This document shows, one piece after another, positions 7,310 to 15,189 of a stretch of DNA of 35,039 nt. The stretch comes from a virus. Lineage: Duplodnaviria; Heunggongvirae; Uroviricota; Caudoviricetes. Location of the stretch: the IMG/VR virus record IMGVR_UViG_2660238349_000014; one strand, written 5' to 3'. Each line of letters begins with the position of its first letter. Position 1 is the first letter of the stretch. The translations under genes were made by a program, and so were the position numbers. The notes under the pieces are model-generated. The model saw only the letters and a program-made list of their open reading frames with translations. It searched no databases and was not told the DNA's origin.

Positions 7310-7512
7310 GGGGCAATATCCTCTTCTGTACGGGCATCTTCAGCCTCAATAACCGGGATCAGTAACAACAACCCGGAGGGCAGCACCGGCGTAATGGCCA
7401 CGTGCGGATTGGCTGCAATAATCCGGGGATAGCCCAGCGGGTCACCGTAGTACTGCCATGCCAGCGAATCCCAGCGCTCTCCGTCACGGGTAATATGTTC
7501 AAGAAACATCAC
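7297..7512 (-). CDS. tail protein X-like (LysM-like small tail protein)
   Basis: 71 aa with GERWDSLAWQYYGD...IIAANP, resembling the P2 gpX family. Confidence 0.55.
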   Translation of the reverse strand: MMFLEHITRDGERWDSLAWQYYGDPLGYPRIIAANPHVAITPVLPSGLLLLIPVIEAEDARTEEDIAPWLR

Positions 7513-8393
7513 ACACTCCTCGTCAGTATTCTGGCGGCCATTGCACTTAATCCCGGAGACATGCGGTTGAATGCTGTGCCGGCGGCGTTAAGCTGCCCGG
7601 AAACGGTATCCAGAGCACCTGCAATATTTCTTTTGTCCACACCACTCAGCGCCGACTGCGCCTGCTGTACATACGTGGCTGCCTCACTGGCTGTTCTGGC
7701 CAGACTGATGGCATCGGGCATGGATTCAGAGAGTGCATTAAACGCCGGAATACTTTTCCCCAGAGCGCCGGATATATTACCCAGTCCGCTCATCAGTCCC
7801 GGCACACGGGTCAGCGCGACAACGGGGTTACCCTTCATTTTCTGCGCCACCCGAACGGCACTGATAGTGGTCTGGAGTACAGACTGCGCCTGTTTCGCAT
7901 AGTTGACGCCGTTACGGACGAACTGCGCCACCCCGGAAGGCGATGGAACAGCACCCGATACAGCTCCGGCACCGGGAACCTGCCTGCGTATTGCCGGCGG
8001 TTGCAGAGGATTTTTCGGGTCACCGGTGTATTCCCGGAGAGACACGGTGGCACTGACAGCCAGCACGTTACCGGTGCTGTCTGTCTGCTCGCTGGTTGCG
8101 GTCACATCGGTAATCACGAACCAGCCGCGATAGTCACCGTTGCCGAAGACCAGCGCCAGTGCCTGATGGGCCTTCATGGCTGTTCGCACTCTCGCCAGCT
8201 CCACGTCGGGCACACAATAATGCTGATGGAAGACCAGGCTTATCTGGATTTCGTCCAGCCTGTCGCCGACAAACTGCAGGCCGGGTTTACCCTCGATGCG
8301 GGCATGCTCCGCATAATCGACGCCAAACGTGGCCTCGAAGCCGTCCCAGTAGGTAATCAGTTCAAACTCAATATCACCCAGTACGGCAAACAT
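7509..8393 (-). CDS. DNA circularisation protein N-like (Mu gp43-like)
   Basis: 294 aa, immediately downstream of the tape measure gene as in Mu-like tail modules. Confidence 0.5.
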   Translation of the reverse strand: MFAVLGDIEFELITYWDGFEATFGVDYAEHARIEGKPGLQFVGDRLDEIQISLVFHQHYCVPDVELARVRTAMKAHQALALVFGNGDYRGWFVITDVTATSEQTDSTGNVLAVSATVSLREYTGDPKNPLQPPAIRRQVPGAGAVSGAVPSPSGVAQFVRNGVNYAKQAQSVLQTTISAVRVAQKMKGNPVVALTRVPGLMSGLGNISGALGKSIPAFNALSESMPDAISLARTASEAATYVQQAQSALSGVDKRNIAGALDTVSGQLNAAGTAFNRMSPGLSAMAARILTRSV

Positions 8394-10858
8394 CAGCTGT
8401 ACTCCTTACGTTGTTTCTGAGCCAGCAGACGCTCCAGCATTTTTTCCAGCTCATGCAGGCTCATATTCAGGGCACCAGCCAGCCCGGCAGGCGCTGCGGT
8501 TTCCTTACCATTGAGGAAAAACTGAGGATTAAAGCTGACCTGGATACCGCCAGACGCTCCACCGCCGGTTGCAGTTGCGCCACGGCCTGAATATCCGGCA
8601 GCCATGATTTCCGGCGACGGGATACGGGGAACATCCGGTGTCATTTCAGCGGCCAGGCGCTGCCCGGCCAGTGCAGCAAGCGGAGTGGTCCGTTGCAGGC
8701 CAATGGCGGCACCCTGCGCGATATTGTCACCAAAGCCTATAAACACGCGACTCGGTGAATGGATGCCCAGCTTTTCGCTGAACCAGTCACTGATGCTGTC
8801 ACCCATTCCGGTTATGCTGGTTTTCAGTGACTCCCATTTGTTTCTGATGCCATTTATCAGCCCGTCGATAAGATGACCACCGAAGTCGGTGAACTTCGCC
8901 GGCAAATCAACGCCGAGATATTTCAGCGCAGCCGCAAAGGCTTTATAAAGCAGACCCGCCGGAGACCAGTTAACCAGCAGTTTACCAATTCCCGCGATGC
9001 CGCCGTTAAAGGCTTCCTGAATGTCAGCCCAGCGCTGTTTAAACCAGCTACTGACTGCGCCCCAGTTGCGGTAGATAAGGTAAGCTGCTGCCGCGACGGC
9101 GGTGATAGCGAGACCGATGGGATTCATCATCAGCGCCCGGCCAATCCAGAGAAGGGCACGTGCAGCAATCATAAAACCGCGAACGAGGCTGCCCGCCAGA
9201 ACTTTGCTGAGTTTCAGTCCTCCGCTGGCCAGCCGGCTGAATCCAGTGACAAGCCAGCGTAATTTGCCACCTTCTCCGAGTGCGGTAGTCAGTCGACGCC
9301 AGTTGGTCCGCAGTAAAACAGCATTTTTCCAGACGCTTACAAAGGGGGAAATAAGGAGATTCAGCCCAAGCTTGAGACCGATAGTGGCCATCCTGAAAGC
9401 GAGTAATGCGCCCACAACCTTTATGGTGCTGCTGACGAGCTGCGGATTTGCCGCTATCCATTTGCCGACGCTGTCCATTAAAGGAATAAATGTTTCACCC
9501 AACTGGAGCAAAGCCGGACGCAAGGATTGCCCGATGCTGATAGCAGAATCATTAAAGCCGATCTGCATTCTGCGCCAGCGACCTTCAAGCGTATCATTCT
9601 GCTTTGCAGCATCCTTATCCAGGGTAGACATTGCAGCCGGAGCATTCATTTCCTGCTTACTGGAAAGGTATTTATCCCAGCCCTGTCGCATTGACAGTAA
9701 ATGGTTGACAGTCTGAATATCGGTAAAGACCTCAGCCAGACCAAATGACTCCATGAGTTTCTGCTGACCTTCCTGATCGCCTCTTGCTCCTGCAGCTTTC
9801 CATTGCTGCAAAAACGCTTTGCCTTTACTGTCGATAAAACGGTTGGCAATCATCAGTGAAGCTTCGTACTGCGAAAAACCCTGAGCGACGTAATTCTGCA
9901 TTGACCCCTGGTAATCCACCCCGGCTTTAGCATATTTCTGGATGGTATCTCCGCGGCCCATTGCTGCCAGCCAGTTGGACATATTGGTGACCGCTTCCTC
10001 TGCAGAGCCACTACCTTTACCGACCTCCAGACTGGCAACAATCTGGGTAATCGCATCTTTTCCATAAATGCCACGGGCAGCGAAGGCTTTAGCCATACCG
10101 GGTAATGCTTTTGCCATATCCTTCAGCTCAAATGACCCAAGTTTGGCTCCTGTTGCCGCAATACCAAATGCCTGTTCAAGTTCTTTCGCATCAGTGATTC
10201 TGAGTGCATCGCTGAAGGCATAAGTCATTTTGGCAAGGTCGGTCATATCGGCTTTGGTTGCTGTAGCGGTCTTTCCAAGCATCTCTGCAAACGTTGCTGC
10301 CCGTTCGGGGGCCATACCATCAGCAACTAATTGTCCGACTCCCCCTAACAGAGACTCCTGCAGTTGGTTAACCTTCAGCGAGGCCTGTCTGATAGCCAGG
10401 CCAATTGCACGTTCCTGTTTTGCATCCAGGTCTCCTGTGACACTGATATCCCGTAACTGTGATTCAAACGAGGCATATTGTTTAACCGAGGCCATGACCG
10501 GTGCGCCCAGCGTTCTGCCAATAGCATAGGTTTCTGCACCCTGACCATAGAGCGCCAGGCGGTTAGCCTTCAACGCATCACCGGTGGCTGATACTGCTGA
10601 CAGACGGCGCTGCTGACGTTCAATTTGCTCCATGGTGCGGCTTACCCGCAGCAACTCGCTGTTGAGATGCTGCATCCGGGAAGAACCCAGTTGACCATAA
10701 CGTTCTGTTGCCCGGGTTAAGGCATTCTGGCGTTCCTGCAGACGGCGGGAGGTATCACCAAGGGAATCAAGGGCGCGTCGGGTGCCACTGACGGCTGAGC
10801 GGAAGCTGCTCCCGACAATGCCGCCAATAATGACGCCGACTGAAAATTCACTGGCCAC
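8393..10858 (-). CDS. tail tape measure protein
   Basis: 821 aa, the longest ORF in the window. Alanine/glycine-rich and predicted helical, with hydrophobic segments. Lies between the chaperone and baseplate genes. Confidence 0.8.
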   Translation of the reverse strand: MASEFSVGVIIGGIVGSSFRSAVSGTRRALDSLGDTSRRLQERQNALTRATERYGQLGSSRMQHLNSELLRVSRTMEQIERQQRRLSAVSATGDALKANRLALYGQGAETYAIGRTLGAPVMASVKQYASFESQLRDISVTGDLDAKQERAIGLAIRQASLKVNQLQESLLGGVGQLVADGMAPERAATFAEMLGKTATATKADMTDLAKMTYAFSDALRITDAKELEQAFGIAATGAKLGSFELKDMAKALPGMAKAFAARGIYGKDAITQIVASLEVGKGSGSAEEAVTNMSNWLAAMGRGDTIQKYAKAGVDYQGSMQNYVAQGFSQYEASLMIANRFIDSKGKAFLQQWKAAGARGDQEGQQKLMESFGLAEVFTDIQTVNHLLSMRQGWDKYLSSKQEMNAPAAMSTLDKDAAKQNDTLEGRWRRMQIGFNDSAISIGQSLRPALLQLGETFIPLMDSVGKWIAANPQLVSSTIKVVGALLAFRMATIGLKLGLNLLISPFVSVWKNAVLLRTNWRRLTTALGEGGKLRWLVTGFSRLASGGLKLSKVLAGSLVRGFMIAARALLWIGRALMMNPIGLAITAVAAAAYLIYRNWGAVSSWFKQRWADIQEAFNGGIAGIGKLLVNWSPAGLLYKAFAAALKYLGVDLPAKFTDFGGHLIDGLINGIRNKWESLKTSITGMGDSISDWFSEKLGIHSPSRVFIGFGDNIAQGAAIGLQRTTPLAALAGQRLAAEMTPDVPRIPSPEIMAAGYSGRGATATGGGASGGIQVSFNPQFFLNGKETAAPAGLAGALNMSLHELEKMLERLLAQKQRKEYS

Positions 10859-10950
10859 GGTGGCTATCCTCTGAAAGCAAAAAAACGGAAGGGAAGTGTC
10901 TGAACCCCATGCAGAACAGCCGCGACTGGCGGCTGTTAAGTGATACGTTG

Positions 10951-11208
10951 TTACTGATTGTCGCCGAACTCGCTTTTGATTTGCTCTTCAGCCTGCTCCA
11001 GCCACATCTCCAGATCGTCAGTATCGAGGGCATCAATCTCCCCCGGCTGAAACCTGAACCATCTCGCCAGCAGGCCCTGCGCCTGCATCAGTGTTTTTGT
11101 CGCTCTTGCCCAGCCCAGTGATTTTCTGAAATCGTTTCTGCAGCTCCATATAGTCGGCAAGATCCATGTTATCGAGGTCTTCCGGGAGGATACCGGTGCT
11201 ACGGGCAA
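10951..11208 (-). CDS. frameshift extension of the tail assembly chaperone (candidate)
   Basis: Reading frame open across the chaperone stop in the +1 frame. C-terminal QPGEIDALDTDDLEMWLEQAEEQIKSEFGDNQ looks like authentic protein. G5 run at the junction. Confidence 0.4.
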   Translation of the reverse strand: MPVAPVSSRKTSITWILPTIWSCRNDFRKSLGWARATKTLMQAQGLLARWFRFQPGEIDALDTDDLEMWLEQAEEQIKSEFGDNQ

Positions 11209-11374
11209 TCAGTGGTTCGTCCCAGTCTGCCGGGTCTTTGTTGATTTTGCGCACCTGCTTCAGGTCTTTTACTGTCAGGCGTTTCAGTTCAATCTGTTCA
11301 ATTCTGGTACCTGCAGCAGTGGTGAAAGGATAAGACAGCGTAAAAGTATCGGACTGGGTCTGTGACATGATCAT
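11033..11374 (-). CDS. tail assembly chaperone
   Basis: 113 aa, immediately upstream of the tape measure. An overlapping ORF in the +1 frame (10951..11208) ends in an acidic tail. Confidence 0.6.
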   Translation of the reverse strand: MIMSQTQSDTFTLSYPFTTAAGTRIEQIELKRLTVKDLKQVRKINKDPADWDEPLIARSTGILPEDLDNMDLADYMELQKRFQKITGLGKSDKNTDAGAGPAGEMVQVSAGGD

Positions 11375-11465
11375 ACTCCTTTGTAAATTCAGAGCAGTAT
11401 GTCTGGCGGTGGACGTGACGGATATTAAAGGAGATTAAGAAGAAGGGGCCGGAGCCCCTGTGATG

Positions 11466-11747
11466 TCAGCAAGTGCGAAAACCCTTGCAGTTACGCAGGA
11501 AAGCGATGAGAAGCGCCTTTCCCTCAGATTTGCCGATGCCGGAGAACCAGTGGTCGGGCGGCTCCCATGCTTCAATCAAATCGGCCAGTTTGCGGGCCTT
11601 TGAACGTGTGCAGTCAATCGGGTCATTGGTTTTACGGGTATTAAAAAGGGTTTCCACCCCCGGAATATCAAGGAGGGTAAACCACGTACCATTTGACATG
11701 CCCAGTGACGCACATCGCCCTCCTTTGTCAGTCAGTTCAACACTCAC
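11466..11747 (-). CDS. hypothetical protein
   Basis: 93 aa ORF with GTG start 2 bp after the tube gene stop, co-oriented with the operon. No recognisable motif. Confidence 0.3.
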   Translation of the reverse strand: MSVELTDKGGRCASLGMSNGTWFTLLDIPGVETLFNTRKTNDPIDCTRSKARKLADLIEAWEPPDHWFSGIGKSEGKALLIAFLRNCKGFRTC

Positions 11748-11749
11748 CG

Positions 11750-12271
11750 TCAGCCCCCGATATTGATCCGATAGTCAGTCAGTTGATCAACGCCACCGAC
11801 GCGGAAGATGTTGGCCAGATAGTCCAGTTGCAGCAACTCTTCACCATCCAGTACCTGTCTGATATACGTGCAGGTGAAGCTACTGGAGAACTCGGCGTTC
11901 TCGTGCTGTTTAAACGTCCCCAGCGGGTTCTTCTTGAACATAATTGTCAGGAAGGTGACCAGCGGGATTTCGTCGATCAGCCCCTGCGAGCTGTAGCGCT
12001 GGACGCTGGAGCGACACTGCAGCGCCAGCGACTTGTACGGGTTCGCGGCAGACAGCATCGCATCGCGGTAAAAGCTGTTCCATTTGATTTCGCCTTCCAG
12101 TTTGTCAAAACCAGCCGGGAGTTCCACCTTACCCACCATCCCCAGTGCCTTGTGTTCCTGCATAATCATGGAGACATCGGGGAGTTTAACCTCCTCAGCC
12201 CGTCCCAGCAGGTTAGTACCATCCAGATAGATGTTGGCATTCGTGATTCGGTTTATCTCAATCTTTGACAT
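11750..12271 (-). CDS. tail tube protein (Mu M-like)
   Basis: 173 aa, directly downstream of and coupled to the sheath gene. Confidence 0.7.
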   Translation of the reverse strand: MSKIEINRITNANIYLDGTNLLGRAEEVKLPDVSMIMQEHKALGMVGKVELPAGFDKLEGEIKWNSFYRDAMLSAANPYKSLALQCRSSVQRYSSQGLIDEIPLVTFLTIMFKKNPLGTFKQHENAEFSSSFTCTYIRQVLDGEELLQLDYLANIFRVGGVDQLTDYRINIGG

Positions 12272-13698
12272 CAGTTGCCCCCTTTCAGGGTTAACAGGTA
12301 TTCCGAGGTGATCTCAGTCTCAAACGTCAGTCGCTCCAGCGGCGGTGGTGGCGTATATTTGTAGCTCAGCAACAGGTGCCCGGCGGCCAGCTCCGTTTCC
12401 GGATTGCGGGCCGGATCAAACCAGCAACGGAAGCCCAGTACCGCGCCATCACCAGTCATTTTGCGACCGTAGGCGTTGACCGACTCCGTCAGTGCATCAA
12501 TCAGCGCCTGAGTAATCGGCATGTCGATGTACTGCTGGCTGAAGTAACGAATGGACTCATTGATCACATCACCGGTGCGGCGAACGTTCTCAAAGTTACG
12601 CATATGGGTGACCGTTGGCCATGCTGCCGTCCGGTTACCCCACAGACGAAGGCCGCTGCCGTAACTGCTGAATACCGTGGTGATCCCCTGTTCGTTAAGC
12701 AGGTTCACCTCGCTCTGCGGATCGTCAATCATTGCCGACAGCTGGCGCTCCACGCCGGTGATCCCCAGAATTTCCTGATTGGAGGATGACCACCAGTACC
12801 CTTTGTCCAGGTCGACTCTGGCACGCAGGCCCGCCGCACGCTGGCTCAGTGGCTCCAGACGTTCCGTGTTCGTCACCGGGTCATATACCTTCACATGCGG
12901 GTAGCACAGGCGGACACGGTCAGAGCTGGTATTAAAGTTAATGGTGCCTTCCGGGCCTCGTCCCGCCAGAGCCTGCGCAAAAGTGGTACCAACCGGCGCA
13001 TCAATATAGGTTACTGCTCCCAGTTTCTCAGCCATGGCGATAAGCTCAACCGAGACGCTGTTCTGGGTGCAGAATACCGGAGCAATCAGGATTTTGGCGA
13101 AGTAGCCAAACAGGTTAAAACTGTCGTTAAGCAGCTTCATGCCGGTACGGTTGCCTGCAGCGTTAACGGTACCGATGATATCAGCCGGGGTGACTTTGGT
13201 CGGATCAGCATAGTTATAGCTGGCCTTCACCGTTGCATCTGCAGCAATGCTTTTACCCAGGTTAGTAATCACCCCGGTCTGTGCATCAAGCGAGTAGTCC
13301 TGACCTTCAACATAAGGCTGACCGTCGCTGTCCGGTTTCAGTACCAGCTGCGCGACCACCGGATTAGCCAGCCGGGCTCTGCCTGTCGCCTTGTCGAACG
13401 ACACATTCTCACTGACCACAGCGGTTTTATGCACAGACGGATCGAGTACGTTAATGACCAGAACGGTGCCTGCACCATGGTCATAAATCGCATCCAGCGC
13501 CTGTGGAATGGTAAAGCCGGTGAACTGGCTGCCAAATGCCGCAGCGTCTTTCTCAGACAGGCACTGTACCAGCGTATTGACATCCCCCATTGGTGCGGTA
13601 CCAATCAGGCCAATAACGGCAGATTTCACCGTTTTAACCGGGCGGGCACCGTTTTCCACTTCAATGGTTTCCGGACCATGCAGATAGTTAGCTGACAT
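12271..13698 (-). CDS. contractile tail sheath protein (Mu L-like)
   Basis: 475 aa, size and position typical of myovirus sheath proteins. Confidence 0.75.
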   Translation of the reverse strand: MSANYLHGPETIEVENGARPVKTVKSAVIGLIGTAPMGDVNTLVQCLSEKDAAAFGSQFTGFTIPQALDAIYDHGAGTVLVINVLDPSVHKTAVVSENVSFDKATGRARLANPVVAQLVLKPDSDGQPYVEGQDYSLDAQTGVITNLGKSIAADATVKASYNYADPTKVTPADIIGTVNAAGNRTGMKLLNDSFNLFGYFAKILIAPVFCTQNSVSVELIAMAEKLGAVTYIDAPVGTTFAQALAGRGPEGTINFNTSSDRVRLCYPHVKVYDPVTNTERLEPLSQRAAGLRARVDLDKGYWWSSSNQEILGITGVERQLSAMIDDPQSEVNLLNEQGITTVFSSYGSGLRLWGNRTAAWPTVTHMRNFENVRRTGDVINESIRYFSQQYIDMPITQALIDALTESVNAYGRKMTGDGAVLGFRCWFDPARNPETELAAGHLLLSYKYTPPPPLERLTFETEITSEYLLTLKGGN

Positions 13699-14850: not shown

Positions 14851-15189
14851 TCACACCCCGCGCAGGATACGAATGACGTCGCCTTCACCCCCGGCTTCAT
14901 CAAGTGCAATACCACAGGATTTACCGTCGCCGGACTGCGGCACGGCTCTGGCCTGAGCATCTGACTGAACAGCCACACCACGGCTGACCGCAGCACCGGC
15001 CTCAACAGCAATAATGCCCAGAACGCTCACCGGCGTGCTGTCGCCGGTAACAGCATCCACTTCGGCAACCCCGAGCGCTGCGGCACCGGCTTTACAGGGG
15101 GTATTATCTGCCCCGACAAAACGCTGCTGTGCCAGTTCTGCCCCTGCCGTTACGGTTGTNATCAGAATGACCTGCTGAGTGGTTCCCAT
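14851..15189 (-). CDS. hypothetical head protein
   Basis: 112 aa, Ala/Gly/Val-rich, directly downstream of the major capsid gene. Confidence 0.4.
   Translation of the reverse strand: MGTTQQVILXTTVTAGAELAQQRFVGADNTPCKAGAAALGVAEVDAVTGDSTPVSVLGIIAVEAGAAVSRGVAVQSDAQARAVPQSGDGKSCGIALDEAGGEGDVIRILRGV

Follow-up and report, generated by a model that had tools for sequence, protein, structure and literature searches.

Where, and in which direction, could ribosomes leave the reading frame of the tail assembly chaperone in this prophage to translate the open frame that overlaps it and runs on past its stop codon? The locus lies on the minus strand of a 35,039-nucleotide stretch of viral DNA (IMG/VR record IMGVR_UViG_2660238349_000014; hereafter the window, whose positions are used throughout). 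Frameshift-extended tail chaperones are textbook, and a preliminary description of the window had proposed a +1 or −2 shift at a run of five G in the last codons of the chaperone ORF. Our comparison of 162 loci leaves the direction standing, as given by the frame offset, and argues against the G run as a programmed site.

The chaperone gene and its surroundings

The window carries the tail module of a contractile-tailed myovirus prophage that is BcepMu-like and related to P2. A Pfam search of its ORFs gave the minus-strand order sheath (12271..13698; PF04984 and PF17482), tube (11750..12271; P2 FII family, PF04985, E = 2.1e-53), a conserved small ORF of 93 aa (11466-11747), chaperone (11033..11368; PF10109, a homologue of P2 gpE and FluMu gp41), tape measure protein (8393..10858; PF10145 and PGAP annotation) and a gpU homologue (7509-8393; ORF list and Pfam search). 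The chaperone is thereby flanked by the tube and tape measure genes, the latter directly following it, with the one extra small ORF on the tube side. The closest phage records are Klebsiella phage KP12, Escherichia phage Phi06_2974 B and Escherichia phage PhiKM, the last of which is classified as Bcepmuvirus.

Several features of the surrounding sequence were recorded in passing. The small ORF, a 'hypothetical protein' (WP_000110115.1), matches Pfam DUF7739 below threshold (25.7 bits, threshold 27), and P2 lacks a gene in the corresponding position. Between this ORF and the chaperone start lies a GC-rich, terminator-like hairpin, AGGGGCTCCGGCCCCT followed by TCTTCTTAAT (11444-11459, minus strand), which might attenuate transcription from within the tail operon into the chaperone and tape measure genes. 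A perfect hairpin without a T-tract, CAGCCGC-CAGT-CGCGGCTG (10914-10932, minus strand), sits in the 92-nt gap between the stop of the +1 ORF (10951) and the tape measure start (10858); judged by eye, close relatives carry similar sequence there. Further upstream, the minus-strand ORF at 14851-15189 has an X in its translation (MGTTQQVILXTT...), which points to an ambiguous base near 15160. An Rfam search of the whole window gave no match.

Overlapping frames and a P2 E′-like extension

The chaperone belongs to Pfam PF10109 (Phage_TAC_7; 79.8 bits, E = 1.5e-22, with scores of 79.8-85.1 bits against a cut-off of 25), and PGAP names it 'phage tail assembly protein' (WP_000084227.1). This match and the position between the tube and tape measure genes bear out its earlier identification as a tail chaperone. 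Searches of NCBIfam with the chaperone, the extension and the predicted fusion gave no match, and neither did a PDB sequence search. Translation is likely to start at the ATG at 11368, which yields 111 aa, is the start chosen by PGAP and is preceded at 7 nt by the Shine–Dalgarno-like sequence AAGGAG; the ORF-maximal ATG at 11374, which would yield 113 aa, is the less likely start.

On the minus strand, the last zero-frame codons are ...GCC GGG GGA GAT TGA, the TGA stop lying at 11035-11033, so that the ORF end given earlier as 11033 is confirmed. The extension frame reads CCG GGG GAG ATT GAT ... CAG TAA, with its TAA stop at 10953-10951; as had been described, it stays open for about 27 codons beyond the zero-frame stop and is acidic, 12 of its last 29 residues being Asp or Glu. 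The five-G run is also present as claimed, at 11044-11040 in the last zero-frame codons, where the chaperone reads it as Gly-Gly and the +1 frame as part of Pro-Gly-Glu. Because the extension frame is offset by +1 (equivalent to −2) from the chaperone, a −1 shift is unable to reach the acidic tail, again in agreement with the preliminary description. What that description overlooked is the extent of the overlap and a locally open −1 frame. The +1 frame is open from 10951 to 11208 (85 codons), and it overlaps the last 58 codons of the chaperone. The −1 frame holds a 62-codon ORF (10848-11036, minus strand) that begins around the chaperone stop and extends into the start of the tape measure gene. 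This ORF stays open in close relatives and meets an early stop in distant ones; it is probably a by-product of two overlapping coding frames.

The extension (FRKSLGWARATKTLMQAQGLLARWFRFQPGEIDALDTDDLEMWLEQAEEQIKSEFGDNQ; 10951..11130, minus strand; 59 codons and the TAA stop, from the ORF translations) resembles the E′ part of the P2 chaperone. When a 14-sequence profile of +1-frame extensions was compared with P2 E′ by hhalign, the probability was 95% (E = 3.5e-8), the aligned segment QAQGLLARWFRFQPGEIDALDTDDLEMWLEQAEEQ of the extension being matched to DLMADVAVIFHWPPSELYPMSLTELITWREKALRR of P2 E′. This segment, the core of an E′-like domain, occupies 10981..11085 on the minus strand. The homology includes the +1 peptide upstream of the G run (QAQGLLARWFRFQPGE...) and begins 13 residues before the Pro-Gly-Glu that the run encodes. 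Pfam PF06528 (Phage_P2_GpE) scores 16.5-17.5 bits on the extension, below its cut-off of 23; in the ORF 10951-11088 the match covers residues 7-39 (16.5 bits), and its segment LARWFRFQPGEIDAL... likewise starts upstream of the G run. In some genomes PGAP annotates the ORF 10951-11088 as a separate 45-aa CDS, 'GpE family phage tail protein'.

Comparison of 162 loci

Three sets of relatives were gathered. One-genome-per-species contigs supplied 28 loci and IMG/VR 80 close ones; a distant set of 59, with a GC content of 55-68%, was collected by starting from the BcepMu, phiE255 and Pseudomonas homologues. We also drew on the annotated records of Mu, P2, BcepMu, phiE255, Komp_PAO1_1 and a Pasteurella phage. 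The pooled set comprises 162 loci with the +1-frame E′-like motif, from Enterobacteria to Burkholderia and Pseudomonas, and the close set 73 distinct sequences. Among the pooled loci there are 75 unique chaperone domains, which form 31 clusters at 90% identity, 16 at 80%, 10 at 70% and 7 at 60%; the sequences are non-independent, and conservation counts over the 162 loci are inflated by shared ancestry. Relatives of the chaperone with its +1-frame extension were further found in 641 of 5,426 complete E. coli genomes. As judged from this recurrence, in the 162 loci and in E. coli, the arrangement is not due to chance.

The position at which coding selection changes frame was examined in two ways. 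Entropy was summed by zero-frame codon position over 64 ungapped enterobacterial sequences. In the 50 codons upstream of Phe82, the sums for the three positions were 18.2, 10.9 and 44.8, the pattern of ordinary zero-frame coding. From codons +13 to +31 after Phe82, they were 11.4, 4.6 and 2.7, and the variation falls on the third position of the +1 frame. The window's own class was then taken separately, as the 17 sequences whose zero frame continues through the five-G run, and differences from the window were counted over the 16 codons just upstream of the run. Read in the +1 frame, 62 of these differences are synonymous and 27 nonsynonymous; read in the zero frame, 12 are synonymous and 77 nonsynonymous. 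Within the same 17 sequences the +1-frame peptide GLLARWFRFQP is invariant, and the zero-frame peptide occurs in 13 forms. This pattern argues that the +1 frame is translated upstream of the G run in the window's own lineage.

The G run as a candidate site

If the shift took place at the G run, the zero frame would have to reach it. Of the 73 close sequences, 35 have their zero-frame stop 25 codons after Phe82 and 5 have it 11-15 codons after; in all of these the stop precedes the run. Eight sequences end 30 codons after Phe82, seven of which have no run and one a G4, and 19 end 32 codons after Phe82 and read through G5, as the window does. In the distant set the zero frame often ends just 7-11 codons past the Phe codon, and the nucleotide alignment has CCGAGTGAG or CCCAGTGAG in place of the run. 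All of the loci nevertheless retain the E′-like +1-frame peptide, as ...LLARWFRFQP[GS]EI... or ...LLLVLKIQPSEI.... A shift at the G run is impossible in most relatives, because the zero frame ends before the run or the run is absent. G5 is kept in 19 of 19 loci whose zero frame reaches it and in 28 of 35 in which it is unreachable, a comparison that is confounded by phylogeny and does not discriminate; its retention in the 28 means that +1-frame coding of Pro-Gly-Glu accounts for the run.

The model under which the shift occurs at G5 near the zero-frame stop, by +1 on GGG_G or by a Mu-like −2, and adds a 29-residue acidic tail (EIDALD...GDNQ) does have points in its favour. The zero frame of the window traverses the run, where the next zero-frame codon, GGA, is fairly rare in E. 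coli, and G5 is intact in each of the 19 relatives with a zero frame that extends to it. The verified −2 site of Mu is likewise a five-G run, CGG GGG CGA (PMC3498833), which made the earlier proposal a reasonable one. In six database entries (P0010, P0011, P0017, P0028, L017 and L119), moreover, the two ORFs are fused exactly at the run; these fusions resemble homopolymer indels. The interruption or absence of the run in most relatives and its persistence where it is unreachable speak against this model, as does the fact that both +1-frame selection and P2 E′ homology begin upstream of the run, the former by at least 16 codons, in the window's own class as well. A Mu-type −2 shift on the run, reachable in the window, was rejected on the same grounds. 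We consider it very unlikely, on the comparative data, that the G run is a programmed shift site. Low-level shifting may occur there, and the comparison gives no need for it.

The run itself varies. G4 or G6 replaces G5, with a frame change exactly at 11040-11044, in P0010, P0011, P0017, P0028, P0042, P0076, P0077 and P0092, and the frame also changes exactly at the run in the genomes L017 and L119, one of which is Erwinia tracheiphila. The G4 and G6 variants produce in-frame fusions of the chaperone to its tail or run-ons into the third frame. Either the homopolymer is a hot spot for indels or sequencing errors, or the variation is real. Two further entries, P0068 (E. coli ECZU08_32630, NCBI) and P0015, are annotated as 138-aa proteins in which single-base deletions, at CAGGGCG or at the A5 run, have permanently joined the chaperone to the whole +1 extension; if these are real, the prophages concerned make the long form only. 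We did not accept the 'fused' ORFs (P0010, P0011, P0015, P0017, P0028, P0068 and others) as evidence for a shift site. They switch frame at differing homopolymers, some into the third frame, and we take them to be indels or assembly errors.

A conserved UUU_C as the proposed site at the edge of the chaperone domain

The sole invariant block in the nucleotide alignment is CGATTTC (11134-11128 in the window), which is found in 68 of the 73 distinct close relatives. On the basis of its conservation and of the stop-bounded interval described below, we propose this block as the shift site, CGA_UUU_C, in which Arg81 and Phe82 are followed by C (11128..11134, minus strand). At the invariant Phe82 (11131-11128), 161 of the 162 loci have TTT_C and the remaining one TTT_T. 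The preceding codon is CGA in 104 loci; TCC, GTG, GCC, ACC and others take its place elsewhere. Wobble entropy is 0.12 for the CGA and 0.00 for the TTT, against a mean of 0.90, and part of this conservation could stem from shared ancestry. The relatives of 55-68% GC also keep TTT, a codon that makes up about 24% of their Phe codons; this is a rough count over all long plus-strand ORFs of the fetched flanks and, since spurious off-frame ORFs are included in it, probably an overestimate.

Stop codons also confine the shift. Across the 162 loci, a common shift could take place only between codons −3 and +7 relative to the Phe codon. The upstream bound is set by 13 loci in which the +1 frame first opens at −3, the downstream bound by 9 loci in which the zero frame terminates at +7. 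Within this interval, no slip-capable element other than UUU_C is shared by all loci. A −2 slip at UUU_C would be impossible, because GAU is unable to pair with tRNA-Phe, and the prediction is a +1 slip. These comparisons suggest that the longer chaperone is made by a +1 slip at codon 82, on a CGA_UUU_C that lies about 87 bases ahead of the G run, and we assign this reading a probability of roughly 75%.

According to the proposed mechanism, most ribosomes would stay in the zero frame and produce the 111-aa gpE-like chaperone. A minority, with tRNA-Phe in the P site on the UUU of CGA_UUU_C, would slip forward by one base, the tRNA re-pairing from UUU (11131-11129) to UUC (11130-11128). The slip product would consist of the chaperone domain, a linker of roughly 20 residues and the E′-like domain, 138-140 aa in all. 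Started from the ATG at 11368, the predicted fusion is ...ELQKRF-RKSLGWARATKTLMQAQGLLARWFRFQPGEIDALDTDDLEMWLEQAEEQIKSEFGDNQ, of 138 aa, and it matches TAC_7 at residues 8-84 (85.1 bits) and GpE at residues 100-132 (17.5 bits). For the roles of the short and long products in assembly we rely on the analogy with lambda G/GT and P2 E/E+E′, which suggests that the N-terminal domain present in both products coats the tape measure protein and that the extension brings in tube subunits.

Precedents exist for slippage on such a sequence, although its occurrence and efficiency at this UUU_C are our supposition. [quoted passage not shown] Influenza PA-X is produced by a +1 shift on UCC_UUU_CGU, where slippage takes place in the P site on UUU_C and the E-site codon is stimulatory, and +1 shifting in RF2 is favoured by weaker E-site pairing (PMC3498833). 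CGA is among the few codons able to replace GCG in Ty3 +1 shifting (PMC5009743). At the present site, the rare, I:A-decoded CGA in the E site may enhance the slip.

In the A site, UUU is followed by CAG in the window, whereas relatives have CGC, CGG or CAA there. CAG is not rare, so the classical 'hungry' A-site codon is absent; in the +1 frame, translation of the window would resume at AGA, a rare codon in E. coli. Folding of 11020-11160 gave no better RNA structure downstream than shuffled sequence (z = +0.54), and no conserved upstream Shine–Dalgarno-like sequence was found among the loci compared; a GGAG at 11146-11143, considered as an upstream stimulator, is not conserved. With neither a conserved Shine–Dalgarno-like sequence nor RNA structure, the efficiency of the shift may be low. 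For the −2 shift of Mu it is about 2.2% (PMC3498833).

Other accounts of the +1 frame have to be weighed against slippage at UUU_C. The phage of the window might use several sites, with AAA_A tetramers carrying the +1 shift besides or instead of UUU_C. The window does hold further +1-capable sites, as AAA_A tetramers specific to it at codons 84 (CAG AAA ATC, 11125-11122) and 106 (GAC AAA AAC, 11095-11091) and as GGG_G at codon 111. AAA_A is an efficient +1 tetramer in vitro (bioRxiv 10.1101/2025.10.02.679949), both copies fall within the overlap of the zero and +1 frames upstream of the E′ core, and in the database ORF P0015 the fusion point lies at the A5 run. Neither AAA_A site is conserved, however, most relatives having CAG CAA GTC and GAC GAA AAC, and the second lies outside the shift interval common to all loci. 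We regard such a route as unlikely. These AAA_A sites and the GGG_G, which is not conserved either, might add minor products.

It is also conceivable that no recoding takes place and that the +1 ORF is translated alone, from an ATG at 11088 or by reinitiation, into a small 'GpE family' protein. This would fit the separate 45-aa CDS that PGAP calls in some genomes and the presence of that ATG in the window. The ATG, however, is replaced by ACG, ATT or CGT in relatives, so that the +1 ORF has no conserved start codon, and it is not accompanied by a Shine–Dalgarno sequence; both the openness of the +1 frame and the selection on it reach upstream of 11088, and in 13 loci the frame opens just 3 codons ahead of UUC. 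In P2, furthermore, the homologous segment is produced only as a fusion (PMC3091744). Independent translation therefore appears highly improbable. As for the extension being a functionless, decaying remnant or a sequencing frameshift, nothing specific favours this beyond the occurrence of some relatives (L017 and L026) in degraded symbiont genomes, and an intact, selected +1 peptide in 162 loci from several bacterial orders effectively refutes it; we give it hardly any credence.

Relation to known chaperone frameshifts

Tail chaperone shifts may be −1, −2 (Mu) or +1 (PMC5009743), so the principle of a +1 chaperone shift is not new. The closest parallel is gpE/gpE+E′ of P2, whose gene holds the same position between the tube gene FII and the tape measure gene T. 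The shared N-terminal domain is of family PF10109 in both (47.5 bits in P2, 80-85 bits in the window), and P2 E′ is homologous to the extension of the window (hhalign 95%; PF06528 below its cut-off in the window). The fusions are colinear and similar in size, 138-140 aa for the window and 142 aa for P2 E+E′, and the latter carries the same two domains at residues 7-85 and 104-139. In P2, and by prediction in the window, the frame changes on a Phe codon that marks the C-terminal limit of the TAC_7 domain; the two Phe codons are about 3 profile positions apart, the same place but not strictly the same column. Downstream RNA structure is absent in both. The two differ in direction, P2 shifting by −1 on T_TTT_TTG (GGT TTT TTG; PMC3091744) and the window, by our prediction, by +1 on UUU_C, and in the zero-frame tail beyond the site, which is 31 codons long in the window and 7 in P2. 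A P2-type −1 shift was rejected for the window, where the extension is in the +1 frame and no X_XXY_YYZ heptamer occurs.

Mu gp41/Mu_56, with its verified −2 shift on CGG_GGG_CGA, is a myovirus chaperone with an extension in the +1/−2 frame, like the window. The window has G5 near its zero-frame stop, but in its family the run is unconserved and mostly unreachable, and the Mu chaperone did not appear in the results of similarity searches with the window's chaperone. The UUU_Y sites of YopN-TyeA and PA-X share with the window the UUU followed by a pyrimidine that permits +1 re-pairing of tRNA-Phe, and the Burkholderia relatives have UCC_UUU_CGC, which is almost the PA-X cassette. Those sites, in contrast, serve other genes and other biology; the A-site CAG of the window is not rare, and the site in the window is a predicted one.

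Within the family of the window, the annotation of BcepMu deserves comment. In its record (AY539836), gp41 is the chaperone homologue and gp42 the +1-frame E′-like ORF, yet slippage is placed between gp42 and gp43, which are offset by −1, and not between gp41 and gp42. GenBank calls gp42 the lambda G analogue and gp43 its slippage product (locus L039, 24858-25363). In phiE255, the region corresponding to gp42/gp43 carries a membrane protein gene on the opposite strand. The gp42/gp43 join is probably a mis-assignment; judging from the comparison of loci, we favour a +1 shift from gp41 into gp42 at TCC_UUU_C. In the KS10 paper, no frameshift site was found beside the FluMu-gp41-like gene (PMC2628397). 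None of the database records that we inspected joins the chaperone and +1 ORFs. Nor is a +1 chaperone frameshift described for BcepMu-like phages in the literature covered, although subscription journals were mostly outside its scope and a prior description is possible.

Two relatives bear on how the direction may change. In a Pasteurella relative, E′ lies in the −1 frame and the sequence G_GGA_AAG is present, and the direction of the shift thus varies within the chaperone family. In L154 (IMG/VR 3300033998_000108), near position 1420 of the locus, the sequence at the shift position is GAT TTT TTT CGG, a T7 run that resembles the P2 heptamer, and the extension stays in the +1 frame; this locus could be an intermediate between the −1 and +1 solutions. 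For the P2 E/E′ family, we find it an evenly balanced proposition that the direction of frameshifting was swapped at essentially the same place, between −1 on T_TTT_TTG in P2 and +1 on UUU_C in the BcepMu-like clade, the latter without a stop codon, rare A-site codon or RNA structure, and that the near-invariant E-site CGA of the enterobacterial members stimulates the shift.

Implications

The analysis identifies a likely shift site in a very common prophage family, a bare UUU_C tetramer that is distant from the zero-frame stop. The chaperone and +1 ORFs are left unjoined by motif-based finders, by PGAP, which calls two genes or one, and by phage annotators, and their correct annotation affects the protein inventories of hundreds of prophages of E. 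coli, Salmonella, Klebsiella, Burkholderia and Pseudomonas. The family also provides a natural comparison of −1 and +1 shifting at the same place in homologous genes, in which there may be an effect of the E-site CGA that is testable in E. coli. If the swap of direction and the stimulation by CGA are real, CGA_UUU_C would be a natural and widespread bacterial +1 cassette, present in about 12% of complete E. coli genomes.
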